39,558 nt of DNA, taken from a virus. A model generated the notes under the pieces. That model was given only the letters and a program-made list of their open reading frames with translations, did no database searches and had not been told where the DNA came from. Location of the stretch: positions 1 through 39,558 of IMG/VR virus record IMGVR_UViG_3300020119_000145, one strand, 5' to 3'. The translations under genes and the position numbers were made by a program. This document shows positions 35,509 to 39,558 of the stretch, one piece after another (within the stretch, counting starts at the first letter, position 1; every line of letters starts with the position of its first letter).

Positions 35509-35676
35509 TTAAGGAGTTTGTTCATCATCTTCGTAATCATCCTCATCAAACTCCACCACAGGCTCGGGAATACCGTTGATCAGTTTGAAATTAAGCCGTG
35601 GTCGATACGGATCACCGATAGATTGTTCGTAGGCTTCGGTATCGTTGATAACCATGTGGTTTTCTAAGTCAGGCAT
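35509..35676 (-). CDS. Hypothetical 55-aa acidic protein, first gene of the leftward operon
   Basis: Hand-translated: MPDLENHMVINDTEAYEQSIGDPYRPRLNFKLINGIPEPVVEFDEDDYEDDEQTP. GGAGA lies 7 nt upstream. Confidence 0.5.
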   Translation of the reverse strand: MPDLENHMVINDTEAYEQSIGDPYRPRLNFKLINGIPEPVVEFDEDDYEDDEQTP

Positions 35677-35703
35677 TGGAGCGTCTCCGCAGTTGATGGA
35701 GTG

Positions 35704-35732
35704 ATTAAAACAAAGACGATTCCTCTTGTCAA
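35704..35732 (-). promoter_or_regulatory. Leftward (PL-like) promoter TTGACA-17 nt-TTTAAT
   Basis: On the minus strand the -35 is the complement of 35727..35732 and the -10 is the complement of 35704..35709, with a 17-nt spacer. It lies upstream of the 35676 start. Confidence 0.6.
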
Positions 35733-35754
35733 TGCCATTGGTAACATATATTAT
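35726..35754 (+). promoter_or_regulatory. Rightward (PR-like) promoter TTGTCA-17 nt-TATTAT driving cro
   Basis: -35 at 35726..35731 and -10 at 35749..35754. The -35 overlaps the leftward -35 in the shared palindrome-like TTGTCAA. The 5-1-5 palindrome CAATGcCATTG (35730..35740) lies in the spacer. Confidence 0.6.
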
Positions 35755-35783
35755 TAATGGACATTAAATATCTCGGAGGCAGC

Positions 35784-35957
35784 ATGACACCAAAACAAGT
35801 TATTACCCATTTCGGCTCAGTACAGAAAGCGGCATTAGCCATCGGTATGACGACACAATGTGTCTATCAGTGGCAGAAGAACAACAAAATCCCCTACGCT
35901 TCACAGCGGATTATCGAGCTGTTGACCGATCATAAACTAGAGGCTAGAAAGCCATGA
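35784..35957 (+). CDS. cro: Cro-type HTH regulator (P22 Cro-like)
   Basis: GGAGG lies 4 nt upstream. VITHFGSVQKAALAIGMTTQCVYQWQKNNKIPYASQRIIELLT aligns with remembered P22 Cro VIDHFGTQRAVAKALGISDAAVSQWKEVIPEKDAYRLEIVT. Confidence 0.8.
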   Translation: MTPKQVITHFGSVQKAALAIGMTTQCVYQWQKNNKIPYASQRIIELLTDHKLEARKP

Positions 35958-36451
35958 CGCTAGAAAGTGATTTTGAACGGTTTAATGGCGCCATGTCATA
36001 CGACAAAGATAGCGGAAATATTACATGGAGGATATGGGTTTCTTCTAGCTCATCAATAGGCAGCATTGCTGGGCATGCCAACAAGAAAGGCTACATCTAT
36101 ATTGGGCTTGGAAATAAGATCTATCTGGCACATAGAGTGGCGTGGCTACTTCATTATGGAGAATGGCCAGACAAGAATATAGACCATATAAATGGCAACC
36201 CTTCAGATAATCGGATATTAAACCTGAGATGTGTATCGCAATCAGTGAATATGCAGAATTTGAGAAATCCGCCGTCTCATAATAAATCAGGGCTAATGGG
36301 AGTTAGCTGGTTTACTGCGGGCTCTAAATGGAGGGCCACCATAACAATTGGGGGGAAAGAAAAACACCTTGGATATTTTATAGATAAACAGGAGGCGTAT
36401 GAAACATACCTGGAAGCAAAAAGAAGACTTCACGAGGGATGCACTATTTAA
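35954..36451 (+). CDS. HNH homing endonuclease with AP2-like domain (paralog of 4851..5351)
   Basis: AHRVAWLLHYGEWPDKNIDHINGNPSDNRILNLR followed by SGLMGVSW...WRATITIGGKEKHLGYFIDKQEAYETY. Confidence 0.85.
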   Translation: MTLESDFERFNGAMSYDKDSGNITWRIWVSSSSSIGSIAGHANKKGYIYIGLGNKIYLAHRVAWLLHYGEWPDKNIDHINGNPSDNRILNLRCVSQSVNMQNLRNPPSHNKSGLMGVSWFTAGSKWRATITIGGKEKHLGYFIDKQEAYETYLEAKRRLHEGCTI

Positions 36452-36602
36452 TATTTATACTTTGATCGAGTTAGTCACCAAAGGAAAATTAAAGCGAGAA
36501 CAATCATGAACGATGACATCACTCCAGGCAATACAGCCCCGCTTATCTGGGCTGTATTGATTATTGCCCTCGGTGCTTTGTATGAAGTATGGAGATTTAT
36601 CT

Positions 36603-36905
36603 ATGGATGATCGAGGCTCCGGGAGAACCACACAACAAATGCTAAATGCGCCGCTGAATTCGGTTTTTATTTGGTGTAATCACCGCATCGATTATCCAAA
36701 GAGGCTTGCTTGCGATCTTAATCGAAATGATTTAGTTGTCGTTCCTCCCTCTTGGTTATCTAGCTGCGATTGGGTTGGGCAGACGCTTACCGGCATCGTT
36801 ATTGATCATGCCGCCAAGCTAACTGGCTCTCAGCAACATTACCTAATTAAAGCAATAGAAAGAATCAGGCAAGCACCACAACCCACGCATCAGGAGAGCC
36901 AGTAG
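36603..36905 (+). CDS. Hypothetical protein with GSGRTT P-loop-like N-terminal motif
   Basis: Track ORF trimmed to the ATG at 36603 (MDDRGSGRTTQQML). No family recognised. Confidence 0.45.
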   Translation: MDDRGSGRTTQQMLNAPLNSVFIWCNHRIDYPKRLACDLNRNDLVVVPPSWLSSCDWVGQTLTGIVIDHAAKLTGSQQHYLIKAIERIRQAPQPTHQESQ

Positions 36906-37082
36906 ATGGATGATCGCATGCCCTGTAAAACCCCTGACTGTCGACGCCATGTGGAATCTGTCCGGCGTGAATTAGGCTTGGATACGTGCTTTGCCTGTAG
37001 TGTGGGGGATATCCGCAAGATATTTGAAACGGAAAAAGAGTTGCGGCAGAAATTATTGGCTAGGCTTGGAGGAAAAGAATGA
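36906..37082 (+). CDS. Hypothetical 58-aa Cys-containing protein
   Basis: Hand-translated (MDDRMPCKTPDCRRH...CFAC...). It abuts the previous stop and makes an ATGA overlap with the next gene. Confidence 0.4.
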   Translation: MDDRMPCKTPDCRRHVESVRRELGLDTCFACSVGDIRKIFETEKELRQKLLARLGGKE

Positions 37083-37291
37083 AAGCAAAATTTATGATTG
37101 AAAATCCAGATGACTTGGAAGCAACGCTGAAGTTGACCATGACAATTAAAGAATGGGGAGAGCTGCGTGATCAGCTTGCTACTGCTTGGCCATCGGCTCG
37201 GCTGTCTACAATAATTACCAATGTGCTTTTCGAAGCAAGAAAGGTTTATTACGCGCCCGAGATTGATCCGCTTACATCAGGCAACTACTAA
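37079..37291 (+). CDS. Hypothetical protein
   Basis: Track ORF with GGAGGAAAAG upstream. Confidence 0.5.
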   Translation: MKAKFMIENPDDLEATLKLTMTIKEWGELRDQLATAWPSARLSTIITNVLFEARKVYYAPEIDPLTSGNY

Positions 37292-37339
37292 TAGTGATTA
37301 ATCTCAATATTTTTTCATTCGAAAACCAGGAGAAGTGAA

Positions 37340-37492
37340 ATGAAACCACTAACAACCGCTCAGAATTTATACCTCGCGCTTGGCGCTGATCCAGTGTGGC
37401 TATTAACGGTTACACATCGCGTTCGAGGATCAAGCTACACAAAGAAAGGCCCCGGCCGCTACCATCGCCAAGGCAAGCCTAAAAATAAATAA
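37340..37492 (+). CDS. Hypothetical 50-aa basic protein
   Basis: Hand-translated. AGGAGAAG lies 5 nt upstream. It is followed by the bidirectional hairpin. Confidence 0.4.
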   Translation: MKPLTTAQNLYLALGADPVWLLTVTHRVRGSSYTKKGPGRYHRQGKPKNK

Positions 37493-37499
37493 GTTCAAT

Positions 37500-37524
37500 G
37501 CGGTGAAGTATCCAGCCTCACCGC
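37500..37524. terminator. Hairpin between convergent genes (possible bidirectional terminator)
   Basis: GCGGTGA-11 nt-TCACCGC with T/A-rich flanks on both strands. It lies between the + gene ending at 37492 and the - gene ending at 37531. Confidence 0.45.
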
Positions 37525-37530
37525 TATTAT

Positions 37531-37746
37531 TCAACCAGTAATTGCAGTATTCAGTTGTGCCGTATTAGCCAGGATCGCATCCGCAGCCGCTTGTACAGCC
37601 GGATCGGAACTGGTTTTCAGTTGGGTAATCAGATCGACTACTTGCGTAATCACGGCGGTCTGTGCTTGTACAGCAGCGGTAAGGTTATCAGTTGCAGTGC
37701 TCATTCGATTTAACTCCCCAAGAAGGTGTTTGAAGTATTTGAACAT
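37531..37746 (-). CDS. Hypothetical Ala/Thr/Gln-rich helical protein (minus-strand island)
   Basis: Track ORF. An alternative start at MSTATDNL is possible. No family recognised. Confidence 0.45.
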   Translation of the reverse strand: MFKYFKHLLGELNRMSTATDNLTAAVQAQTAVITQVVDLITQLKTSSDPAVQAAADAILANTAQLNTAITG

Positions 37747-38005
37747 AGGATGCCCCTAGACGAGCCTAAAGCATAACTTTGAATGCTGACAGATTCCGTG
37801 CGACAGCACACAGAGTATTAATACGGGATCACAATGATAGATGGCTGACAGGAAGGATGCGGTGGCCGGTGCTGATCTCCGGCTTGCCCAACCGCGTTTC
37901 AGAGGTTATTCGAGCACTCGAAGTCTCGACATAGACTCATCCGTCATTTGGGCGCTTCTTTCATTTGCGTTCGCGCATCAGCACTGCGCATTCACCGCAC
38001 ACCAA

Positions 38006-38242
38006 TCATAGCTCAACCGGTCTGAACAAGGGAATCTTTGGGATCGAAGGCGGTGGGAAGTTAGCCTCTTTGTACTCCTGCGTTCCCTCATGCCAATATC
38101 GCAAGGTGGGGTAGGCATCCTCGGCCCCGTACTCGGAAAGCGTTCTATGACGCAGCCAAGCGTCTCTCCATAAGTTAAAGCCTTCGGTATGCTCTTGACC
38201 CTTAATCTCCCAGCACACTAAGTAACGCGGCAATTGTTCCAT
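38006..38242 (-). CDS. Hypothetical protein diverging from the LexA-DBD gene (alternative GTG start 38296)
   Basis: Track ORF trimmed to MEQLPRY. It is Trp/Glu-rich, and I saw no HTH or clear SD. Confidence 0.4.
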   Translation of the reverse strand: MEQLPRYLVCWEIKGQEHTEGFNLWRDAWLRHRTLSEYGAEDAYPTLRYWHEGTQEYKEANFPPPSIPKIPLFRPVEL

Positions 38243-38329
38243 TGTCGTGATTCCAGTTTTGATCGGGAGGAAAACTCTAAATCGGCAGTAATTCACACTT
38301 CAAAATAATAATTGCTATCGAATTCAAGC

Positions 38330-38408
38330 GGTTAATTAGGTTACTCAATCGATTGTTACGGTACCTTTTGTAACGTTTTCAATGTTACTTCGAGTAATTG
38401 GTTAATTA
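38330..38408. promoter_or_regulatory. Array of GTTAC/GTAAC motifs at ~15-bp spacing, bracketed by two GGTTAATTA copies exactly 70 bp apart
   Basis: GGTTAATTA at 38330..38338 and 38400..38408. GTTAC at 38340, 38355 and 38384, and GTAAC at 38370. All lie in the divergent intergenic region. Confidence 0.5.
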
Positions 38409-38457
38409 TTAGTCAGATTTCCAATGAAAATAATGACTTATTGTGCGAAAAAAGTGT

Positions 38458-38486
38458 TTGTAAATTTAGGCGAGCTCATCTATATT
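38458..38486 (+). promoter_or_regulatory. Promoter TTGTAA-17 nt-TATATT for the LexA-DBD/replication operon
   Basis: -35 at 38458..38463 and -10 at 38481..38486 with a 17-nt spacer. Confidence 0.5.
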
Positions 38487-38490
38487 AACA

Positions 38491-38506
38491 CTGTGCATTA
38501 AAACAA
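38491..38506. promoter_or_regulatory. SOS-box-like operator CTGT-N8-ACAA
   Basis: ctgtgcattaaaacaa matches 7 of 8 core positions of the beta/gamma-proteobacterial LexA box CTGT-N8-ACAG. It starts 5 nt after the -10. Confidence 0.4.
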
Positions 38507-38530
38507 ATAAGCTTAACTGAGTATTTCATT

Positions 38531-38746
38531 ATGCCTTCTGCTGAATTGACGGGTACACAAGAGCAAATTCTTAAATATATAAAATCATTTTCTAAGAAGA
38601 ATGGGTTTCCTCCCACGCAAAAAGAGATCGCTGAGTGTTTTCTAGTGTATCCCAATGCGGCCAGATCACACCTCCTGGCGATGGAGAAAAAGGGCGCAAT
38701 CAAGTTATTTCCGGGTATGTCTCGCGGCATTCAGTGCCTTATCTGA
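38531..38746 (+). CDS. Stand-alone LexA N-terminal DNA-binding domain (no hinge cleavage site, no S24 peptidase domain)
   Basis: LTGTQEQILKYIKSFSKKNGFPPTQKEIAECFLVYPNAARSHLLAMEKKGAIKLFPGMSRGIQCL aligns with remembered E. coli LexA 4-69 ([66 protein letters not shown]). The stop comes 2 codons later. Confidence 0.8.
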   Translation: MPSAELTGTQEQILKYIKSFSKKNGFPPTQKEIAECFLVYPNAARSHLLAMEKKGAIKLFPGMSRGIQCLI

Positions 38747-38756
38747 GGCCACGGCC

Positions 38757-39275
38757 ATGCCAATTGAAAAAGAAGATGGCTATCGGTTAATCAAGGAGGG
38801 TGCAAGTTTTACAACACTGCCAAACTCATCGATAGATGCAGTTAGAAGCCCTGTTGCACTCGCCATCTGGGTCCATCTTTGTATGAAGCCGGAGGACTGG
38901 ATTGTTAGGCGCTCAGAAATTATGCAGCGATTCTCCATAGGTCGGGATAAATATCAGGAGTGCATGCGGGAGCTTAGGGCCCTTGGCCTAGTCTGGGATT
39001 ACCACATTCGTGATGAAAATGGCGGTTTTCTCGATAAGGCCATTGTTTGCGGGTTGACTATTGATCCATTGAAAAACAGCCGAGAGCCTGAAATTCAGGC
39101 TGTCCGCCGAGAGCCTGAAAACCCGAAAGACGGTAAACCCGAAAGACGGCAAATCAGGCCCCTTACTAAAGAAAGAGTTATTACTAATAAAAGAATACTT
39201 ACAAATGGTGAAAATGCTTTTGATCGATTAATGGACAAAAGCTGGGCAATAGGATTGGTTGATGAAATTATCTGA
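38757..39275 (+). CDS. Putative replication initiator (winged-helix, O/RepA-like) with internal iterons
   Basis: Track ORF trimmed to the ATG at 38757. The N-terminal FTTLPNSSIDAV...LAIWVHLCMKPEDW...RELRALGLV pattern is typical of wHTH initiators. It has a low-complexity linker encoded by direct repeats. Position fits. Confidence 0.45.
   Translation: MPIEKEDGYRLIKEGASFTTLPNSSIDAVRSPVALAIWVHLCMKPEDWIVRRSEIMQRFSIGRDKYQECMRELRALGLVWDYHIRDENGGFLDKAIVCGLTIDPLKNSREPEIQAVRREPENPKDGKPERRQIRPLTKERVITNKRILTNGENAFDRLMDKSWAIGLVDEII
39079..39149. repeat. Iteron-like direct repeats, followed by an AT-rich tract: candidate origin
   Basis: GCCGAGAGCCTGAAA occurs at 39079..39093 and 39106..39120. AACCCGAAAGACGG occurs at 39120..39133 and 39136..39149. 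The palindrome CCTGAAATTCAGG is at 39087..39099. An AT-rich stretch follows at about 39162..39235. Confidence 0.55.
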
Positions 39276-39558
39276 ATATCTGCGGCTTAAGTGCCGGGTG
39301 CCTGCGCTAACTAGACCAGAGGCTAAAACGATTGGCGTCCCTTATCCGCTAGTTAAAGGCTGGGCAATTAAATATGCGGAGCTGGAGGTTCCTGATCTGC
39401 TGGCTGGCGCGGCTCACCTAAGCAAGAATGAGCGCAAGAAAATTGCTGGGCAAGTTCGCTCGCTGAAAAACCAACAACCCAAAAAACAAAAGCCAATTAA
39501 ACAGCCAAAAGTTAAAAAGTTGAAGGTTAAAAGCGCGGTAGAGCATCCTGATTATGCA
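39262..39558 (+). CDS. HNH endonuclease, 5' part (continues at 128..409 across the junction)
   Basis: The ATG at 39262 overlaps the end of the initiator gene. The frame stays open to the window end and is in phase with 89..409. Total length is about 192 aa. Confidence 0.8.
   Translation, partial: MKLSEYLRLKCRVPALTRPEAKTIGVPYPLVKGWAIKYAELEVPDLLAGAAHLSKNERKKIAGQVRSLKNQQPKKQKPIKQPKVKKLKVKSAVEHPDYA
39432..39558. repeat. Terminal exact duplication, copy 2 (identical to 1..127)
   Basis: See copy 1. Confidence 0.95.

Follow-up and report, generated by a model that had tools for sequence, protein, structure and literature searches.

What does a phage do with the DNA-binding domain of LexA alone, and does such a gene act on the SOS response of its host, answer to it, or neither? 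The question arises from a 71-aa gene with an ATG start (38531..38746, plus strand) in IMG/VR virus record IMGVR_UViG_3300020119_000145, positions 1 to 39,558 of which form the window, the whole 39,558-nucleotide stretch of DNA analysed here. The original prediction placed this gene behind an SOS-box-like operator and offered roles for its product that were tied to host LexA.

The ends of the window share a 127-bp direct repeat, so we treat the assembly as circular and complete, giving a genome of ~39,431 bp with 49% G+C. Pfam and PHROG scans identified a P22-like head module (portal, scaffold, major head and ejection proteins), a holin and a lambdoid early region (Erf, a P22_Cro-family protein starting at 35784, NinB, NinG and several HNH endonucleases). 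An integrase, a CI-type repressor and CII had no Pfam or PHROG match among the ORFs scanned of the complete genome, and neither a Q-type antiterminator nor a late regulator of another kind was recognised there. The closest portal proteins belong to uncultured freshwater 'Manatee Spring' phages (57%) and Xanthomonas phage PBR31 (49%), and megablast of 36000..39558 against phage records returned no match. Back-to-back early promoters lie at 35704..35754 (PL on the minus strand, TTGACA-17-TTTAAT; PR, TTGTCA-17-TATTAT), and the PR operon ends at ~37492, facing two leftward genes (37531..37746 and 38006..38242). The second of these (minus strand, 78 aa, divergent from the LexA-type gene) encodes a protein with no Pfam, PHROG or NCBIfam match; it is 43% identical to the leftward gene of lineage L003 and almost identical to that of lineage L045. 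Across a 288-bp gap from it lies the LexA-type gene, the first in an uninterrupted rightward run of replication, nin, packaging, head, tail and lysis genes. Second in the run, starting 11 nt past the LexA-type stop codon and co-oriented, is a putative replication initiator (38757..39275, plus strand, 172 aa) with an O-like or DnaD-like N-terminus that weakly matches phrog_186 (E = 2.7 × 10−5) and phrog_270 (E = 5 × 10−4). It had no homologue in phage records by tblastn, and its gene contains iteron-like repeats (39079..39138; the direct repeat GCCGAGAGCCTGAAA twice, plus a related copy).

The 71-aa gene encodes the LexA DNA-binding domain (DBD) and no other domain. Residues 5–66 of the product correspond to positions 3–65 of the 65 in Pfam PF01726, LexA_DNA_bind (E = 3.2 × 10−16; 59.3 bits, cutoff 23.7), residues 4–68 match phrog_362, 'transcriptional repressor' (E = 6.7 × 10−17), and residues 4–69 of E. 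coli LexA are 41% identical to it (tblastn). Its matches among PDB sequences are LexA N-terminal domains without exception. An AlphaFold model built with 44 short homologues as input (mean pLDDT 94.8) has the order helix-helix-helix-strand-strand, and its top fold match is 3JSO_B, from the E. coli LexA–DNA complex (TM 0.89, r.m.s.d. 0.7 Å over 66 residues). The protein ends directly after the wing strand; its alignment to LexA stops at about E. coli residue 70, leaving out the hinge and the Ala84-Gly85 site. Its score against NCBIfam TIGR00498 (lexA; 50.5 bits over model positions 3–68 of 203) is below the cutoff of 110.95. Compared with a canonical LexA (TIGR00498; 3JSO, 1LEA), then, the protein shares the N-terminal winged helix-turn-helix (wHTH), its fold and residues N41, A42, H46 and L47, but has no hinge, no cleavage site and no S24/dimerisation domain with its Ser/Lys dyad. 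It has two hallmarks of the stand-alone phage LexA-DBD proteins, namely a single wHTH in ~60–110 aa and a match to the family profile. The original prediction was therefore right in describing a LexA N-terminal domain from end to end that stops before the hinge and can neither self-cleave nor dimerise through the usual domain.

A frameshift or assembly error that masks a downstream S24 domain, the objection attached to that description, can be set aside. When the whole window was searched by tblastn with E. coli LexA and lambda CI, no frame gave an S24-like match (lambda CI had no match anywhere), and independent relatives end alike: P0002 (68% identity, from L003) and P0019 (~45%) are also 71 aa long and share the C-terminal end (...GIQCL(I/V) or ...GIKCLV), so that three lineages agree in both length and C-terminus. 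Between the window gene and that of P0002, pN is 0.21 and pS 0.94 (synonymous sites being saturated). Because relatives share this end and pN is far below pS, we regard the short form as a real, selected gene, and because it has neither S24 domain nor cleavage site, the protein should act independently of RecA.

As an architecture, a LexA domain standing alone proved much less unusual than had been supposed. A profile search returned 6,444 representative proteins at E ≤ 0.001, the best 150 of which included 40 of ≤85 aa, 30 of 85–110 aa and 22 of LexA size. Homologues occur in 72 phage records (including SfV orf42, SfII, SfIV, mEp460, phage cdtI and many Stx2 phages), usually annotated as 'LexA DNA binding domain protein' or 'transcriptional repressor', and many viral LexA-DBD-only structures of 65–80 aa in BFVD match the model. 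A protein-pattern search of metagenome contigs yielded no further relatives, and a scan of genome contigs gave mostly cellular LexA genes. LexA-DBD-only phage proteins are thus a large, already annotated family, with metagenomic relatives in the thousands, in which gp6 of phage GIL01 is the sole characterised member that we found; outside the tectiviruses, the literature searched held none.

GIL01 gp6, from a tectivirus of Bacillus thuringiensis, is a truncated LexA homologue encoded in an early replication operon; it activates the late promoter by binding a palindrome of its own that covers the −35, and works together with host LexA boxes at that promoter (Fornelos et al. 2018, PMC6182141). 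Like gp6, the protein described here is a small phage LexA winged-helix protein that has no cleavage or dimerisation domain, is encoded in an early replication operon and has a diverged recognition helix. Unlike gp6, it comes from another type of virus and another host phylum and has a different sequence, with kinship at the Pfam level only (GIL01 was not among its tblastn matches at E 0.01), and its genome shows neither enrichment of the gp6 palindrome GaCACAnnTGTGaC nor a credible SOS box by the E. coli matrix. Closer in sequence are the nin-region proteins of lambdoid phages (SfV orf42, SfII, SfIV, mEp460 gp46, Stx2, cdtI), which belong to phrog_362 and the same Pfam family, are 44–48% identical over residues 6–67 and are likewise stand-alone DBDs of a lambdoid early region. 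These proteins are ~108 aa long with a C-terminal extension and are encoded between a DNA methylase (methyltransferase) gene and rusA in temperate phages, whereas the window protein has 71 aa and is encoded promoter-first, upstream of an initiator, in a genome without lysogeny genes. No study of the function of the nin-region proteins was found in the literature searched. The top match among isolated phages, 'lexA_2' of Edwardsiella phage EPP-1 (50% identity, 71 aa, genome of 38.6 kb), is uncharacterised and differs in that its gene is internal to an operon, with rusA and a 227-aa gene ahead of it, instead of first. Elsewhere, lineage L006 also has the gene in a nin region and L014 has it between prohead protease and capsid genes. 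Because contexts differ so widely, function may not transfer from one family member to another.

E. coli LexA contacts bases through S39, N41, A42, E44 and E45 (PMC3091678). By alignment, the window protein keeps two of these five residues (N41 and A42) and replaces the other three (S39 by Y, E44 by R and E45 by S): after a one-residue deletion its helix reads Y-P-N-A-A-R-S-H-L, against S-P-N-A-A-E-E-H-L in cellular LexA, a difference that the original prediction had noted and that holds up. Its closest homologue, P0002, reads Y-P-N-A-A-E-G-H-L and so carries yet another pair at positions 44/45. Other short family members (for example, P0067) retain the LexA-like SxNAAEEHL, for which reason we take the divergence in the window protein to be a real difference. 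From these changed and variable contacts we infer a DNA specificity of the protein's own, unlike that of host LexA.

The same residues bear on the proposal that the protein is an uncleavable mimic of, or competitor for, the SOS repressor, occupying host LexA boxes and keeping SOS genes, defences or prophages silent. Such a role would suit a protein that has no S24 domain and so cannot be inactivated through RecA, whose closest matches among cellular proteins are the DNA-binding domains of gammaproteobacterial LexA (54% identity with LexA from MAG L016) and whose recognition helix conserves N41, A42, A43, H46 and L47. Were the protein committed to a host box that does not vary, however, positions 44/45 would be expected to stay constant, and they differ even from those of a 68% identical homologue; three of the five contacts are replaced; other short members show that the LexA-like helix was available to evolution and went unused here; the dimerisation domain is missing; and a sister phage, described below, dispenses with the gene. 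We therefore judge mimicry very unlikely. The related idea of a poison subunit fares no better, since LexA dimerises through its C-terminal domain, the part that this protein would not bring to a mixed dimer.

The gene is preceded by a sigma-70-like promoter, TTGTAA-17-TATATT (38458..38486, plus strand, 9/12 consensus), which heads the rightward replication-side operon and had been predicted at this place. Promoter-like hexamer pairs are not enriched in the region (8 versus 8.0 expected); we accept this one as real because its position is conserved across four lineages including the window. At the same position, L003 has TTCCAT-17-TATAAT and L038 has TTGCGC-16-TATAAT, and L045 is almost identical as far as the final base of the −10.

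Lineage L045 is also the most informative with respect to the gene itself. Together with L044 and L062, it came from a pattern search whose query was taken from the conserved upstream block discussed below, and the three are 92–95% identical to the window over 35522..36600, 37499..37870 and 37989..38486. The homology of L045 takes in the entire promoter (−35, spacer and −10) and breaks no more than 2 bases from the end of the −10 (junction 38486/38487); that of all three picks up again at about window position 901, and between these breakpoints they have unrelated sequence that encodes no LexA-DBD. On this comparison, 38487..~900 is a replaceable mosaic cassette, which in the window comprises a leader (38487..38530, plus strand), the LexA-DBD gene, the O-like initiator with its iterons, an HNH endonuclease gene and two small ORFs. 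In L003 the same LexA-DBD gene (68%) precedes a different replication module (T5orf172 and DUF1376), and in L038 the gene next after it encodes a C5 DNA methylase. Because the sister phage does without it, the LexA-DBD gene does not count among the core regulators of this phage group, and the suggestion that it occupies the position of a cII/CI-type regulator is not supported, for the same reason and because the ORFs scanned in the genome included no integrase or CI-type repressor.

The sister phages also help to place the string that had been read as an SOS operator. CTGTGCATTAAAACAA (38491..38506) does overlap the predicted +1 and does match, at seven of eight positions, the CTGT-N8-ACAG core of the SOS box of Gamma- and Betaproteobacteria, as described, and a promoter on which host LexA sat at this start site would couple the operon to DNA damage. 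But the match is no better than chance. With up to one mismatch, CTGT-N8-ACAG occurs 12 times in the window against 9.9 ± 3.0 expected (at least 12 in 27 of 100 shuffles), and the genome-wide count of exact CTGT-N8-ACAR that the original prediction had proposed gave 3 versus 1.75 expected. We also scored the sequence with a matrix from 25 E. coli LexA boxes, as a rough test only. CTGTGCATTAAAACAA reached 7.9 bits, where the E. coli boxes range from 13.2 to 27.1 (the host's LexA box may differ); it ranked fifth in the window, with 5 sites scoring at least as high versus 3.2 ± 1.7 in shuffles, and no site in the whole genome fell within the range of real boxes (≥13.2 bits). The LexA box is CTG(TA)5CAG with a conserved CAG (PMC3091678), and it is this CAG that the sole mismatch of CTGTGCATTAAAACAA hits. 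Nor is the string shared by related promoters, as the operator of a LexA-regulated promoter would be: of the homologous leaders, that of L003 has TACAGTATCATTAAATCC and that of L038 has CGTTAATACTTAAAACAACG, and neither string is an SOS box; and because homology with the sister phages stops after the −10, the string belongs to the leader of the cassette and lies outside the shared promoter module. Counts, matrix score, non-conservation and position alike lead us to reject CTGTGCATTAAAACAA as an SOS box, and control of the operon by host LexA is accordingly an extremely improbable explanation for this locus.

If host LexA does not bind here, the protein might still bind its own DNA nearby, and several candidate sites can be weighed. 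The most conspicuous is a conserved non-coding block flanked by the leftward gene and the promoter (38303..38440), which contains GGTTAATTA twice, GTTAC/GTAAC dyads and AGTAAT-N9-ATTAGT. It aligns to L003 with a local score of 35 (shuffles, 11.9 ± 1.6; maximum 19), and because the alignment is this high although nearby synonymous sites are saturated, we interpret it as a constrained cis-element. L045, however, has the block too and yet lacks the LexA-DBD gene; the block is therefore independent of that gene, and we dropped the idea that these ~140 bp form an operator array for the protein. More likely, the block serves the leftward gene, itself 43% identical in L003, or some other factor.

A second candidate lies in the leader. 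At 38496..38506 the window has CATTAAAACAA, with CATTAAATCCA in L003 and CTTAAAACAAC in L038, each 8–9 nt 3′ of the −10. Within these, TTAAAACAA or CATTAAA stands at an equal offset past the −10 in all three lineages with the LexA-DBD gene and is missing from the L045 leader. A rough positional estimate puts the probability of this by chance at ~0.005–0.01, for a motif that is short, AT-rich, devoid of dyad symmetry and picked post hoc. The whole-region alignment of the window with L038 did not rise above shuffles, and no dyad symmetry common to the three leaders was seen. The leader motif is accordingly a candidate target of the LexA-DBD protein in a suggestive sense only.

Other repeated strings in the window do not behave as operators. 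An 11-mer from the box region, ATTAAAACAAA, had been proposed to recur at the leftward early promoter, and both copies are indeed where they had been reported (38497..38507 and 35704..35714), the second overlapping the minus-strand −10 (TTTAAT) of PL. With up to one mismatch, however, the 11-mer occurs 3 times versus 1.08 expected, and at least 3 times in 8 of 100 shuffles, which is not significant; the PL copy is kept in the L045 contigs as GATTAAAACAAAT and partly in L003 as ATTAAAGCAAA. Its presence in L045, which has neither the gene nor the second copy, indicates that the PL copy is simply the −10 region of PL, and a shared operator is rejected. The 9-mer TTAAAACAA, chosen post hoc, occurs 4 times in the window versus 0.38 expected, two of the copies being intragenic and without extended similarity. 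The dyads ACTAAT-N9-ATTAGT and TGTTAC-N8-GTAACA, also considered as operators, are not enriched.

Position next to the putative initiator raises the further possibility of a replication accessory factor that would bind at or near the origin (iterons 39079..39138) or target the initiator gene specifically. The LexA-DBD gene lies directly upstream of that initiator, in L003 it lies upstream of a DUF1376 replication gene, and relative to L045 it has been gained or lost along with the initiator. Against this, the initiators of the window and L003 are unrelated despite 68% identity between their LexA-DBD proteins, the C5 DNA methylase takes the next place in L038, and the coliphage members of the family sit in the nin region. 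A dedicated replication function is thus quite improbable in our estimation.

The one characterised relative suggests yet another role, in which the protein, as an early product, would bind near the −35 of a later promoter, recruit RNA polymerase and so time the late genes. GIL01 gp6 does this, also from an early replication operon (PMC6182141), the window genome has no recognised late regulator of another kind, and an ORF-poor stretch at 4093..4660 could house a late promoter. Against this role, an essential late activator should not drop out, yet the sister phage, with near-identical early flanks, has no such gene. The gp6 palindrome, moreover, occurs 3 times versus 1.04 expected, with all copies intragenic, and is not enriched; no inverted repeat was found in 3850..4830; and the tblastn search above did not connect the protein to GIL01. 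We consider late activation unlikely, if less so than the alternatives weighed above.

The reading that we lean towards, and hold to be somewhat probable, is that the gene encodes a RecA-independent phage transcription factor with a specificity of its own, which heads a replaceable replication cassette and is neither controlled by LexA nor a mimic of it. In outline, the LexA-DBD gene would be transcribed first from the conserved promoter at 38458..38486; its product would act as a phage transcription factor whose sequence specificity is unlike that of host LexA; and its target would most likely be phage DNA within its own cassette, the top candidate being the motif in the leader, at roughly +3 to +15. 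A protein bound there could dampen its own operon, and with it the replication initiator, by negative feedback, and host LexA would neither control the gene nor be imitated by its product. The isolated LexA DNA-binding domain is not known to have a strong dimerisation surface, and the protein may therefore bind only weakly or depend on a partner.

A more elaborate version of this reading is possible, in which the RecA-blind wHTH and its own start-site operator form a portable, self-contained cassette that slots in downstream of a conserved early promoter and exerts feedback on whichever replication module follows, with a fast-evolving, immunity-like specificity at positions 44/45; as a whole, we regard this version as distinctly unlikely.

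As a discovery, the gene itself is a small one, given that LexA-DBD-only phage proteins are abundant and annotated and have a precedent in GIL01 gp6. The locus nonetheless offers sister phages with and without the cassette behind the same promoter, a clean natural pair with which to probe function. And if the portable-cassette version were true, it would represent an undescribed wiring of replication control in virulent P22-like/lambdoid phages and the first function for phrog_362 outside the tectiviruses.

The early region of the window is interspersed with at least three HNH endonuclease genes, at 35954..36451, at 4818..5351 and across the circular junction (39262..39558, continuing at 128..409). 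In the related lineage L003, which also carries the LexA-type DNA-binding domain gene, T5orf172 (GIY-YIG-like) genes are found instead, at two sites, one of which lies immediately downstream of its LexA-type gene. Together, the HNH genes in the window and the T5orf172 genes in L003 point to frequent movement of homing endonucleases in the vicinity of this locus.

In the sister-phage contig L045, which lacks the LexA-type gene, the place of the cassette behind the shared promoter is occupied by a different segment (L045 3491..4214). Directly downstream of the promoter lies a leader of ~110 nt that terminates with a long hairpin and a T-run (AAGACCCGTTAAG...CTTAACGGGTCTTTTTTT); the segment also contains a 61-aa open reading frame (ORF), followed by ~400 nt free of ORFs, and it may encode a small RNA or act as an attenuator. 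A non-coding block of ~140 bp (window 38303..38440) is also present in L045 and is conserved between the window and L003 despite saturated synonymous sites. Within this block, GGTTAATTA occurs twice, the copies being 70 nt apart, along with three GTTAC/GTAAC motifs and an AGTAAT-N9-ATTAGT element, the L003 counterpart of which is a perfect ATACTAAT-N9-ATTAGTAT.

The region of the rightward early promoter PR (35727..35765) contains two short perfect dyads, CAATG-C-CATTG between the −35 and −10 elements (35730..35740) and TTAATG-GA-CATTAA covering the −10 element and +1 (35752..35765), and both are candidate operators of the P22_Cro-family protein. Elsewhere in the window, the ORF-poor stretch 4093..4660 contains a plus-strand tRNA-like element (4116..4222) that spanned the full Rfam tRNA model (33.1 bits, E = 2.4 × 10−5; gathering score, 29) and carries a 42-nt insertion in its D-loop; it was detected neither by ARAGORN nor by a gathering-threshold scan of the whole window. 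The element, which is kept at 93% in the sister contig L044, may represent a tRNA that either bears an insert or is decaying, or else a remnant resembling attP.

Among the best 152 representative matches to the LexA-type protein, 15 relatives (P0003, P0004, P0008 and 12 more) each combine a tandem pair of LexA-type DNA-binding domains in a single chain. Such a chain is a covalent pseudo-dimer, which suggests that the stand-alone domains act pairwise on DNA. In several lineages, an orphan DNA methyltransferase gene adjoins the stand-alone LexA-type gene, encoding Dam in phage mEp460 (L001) and a C5 methylase in lineages L006 and L038, with rusA often a further neighbour of the two genes; no methyltransferase was found among the window ORFs scanned. 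The adjacency of LexA-type and methyltransferase genes in these lineages might reflect a regulatory link like that provided by a C protein.
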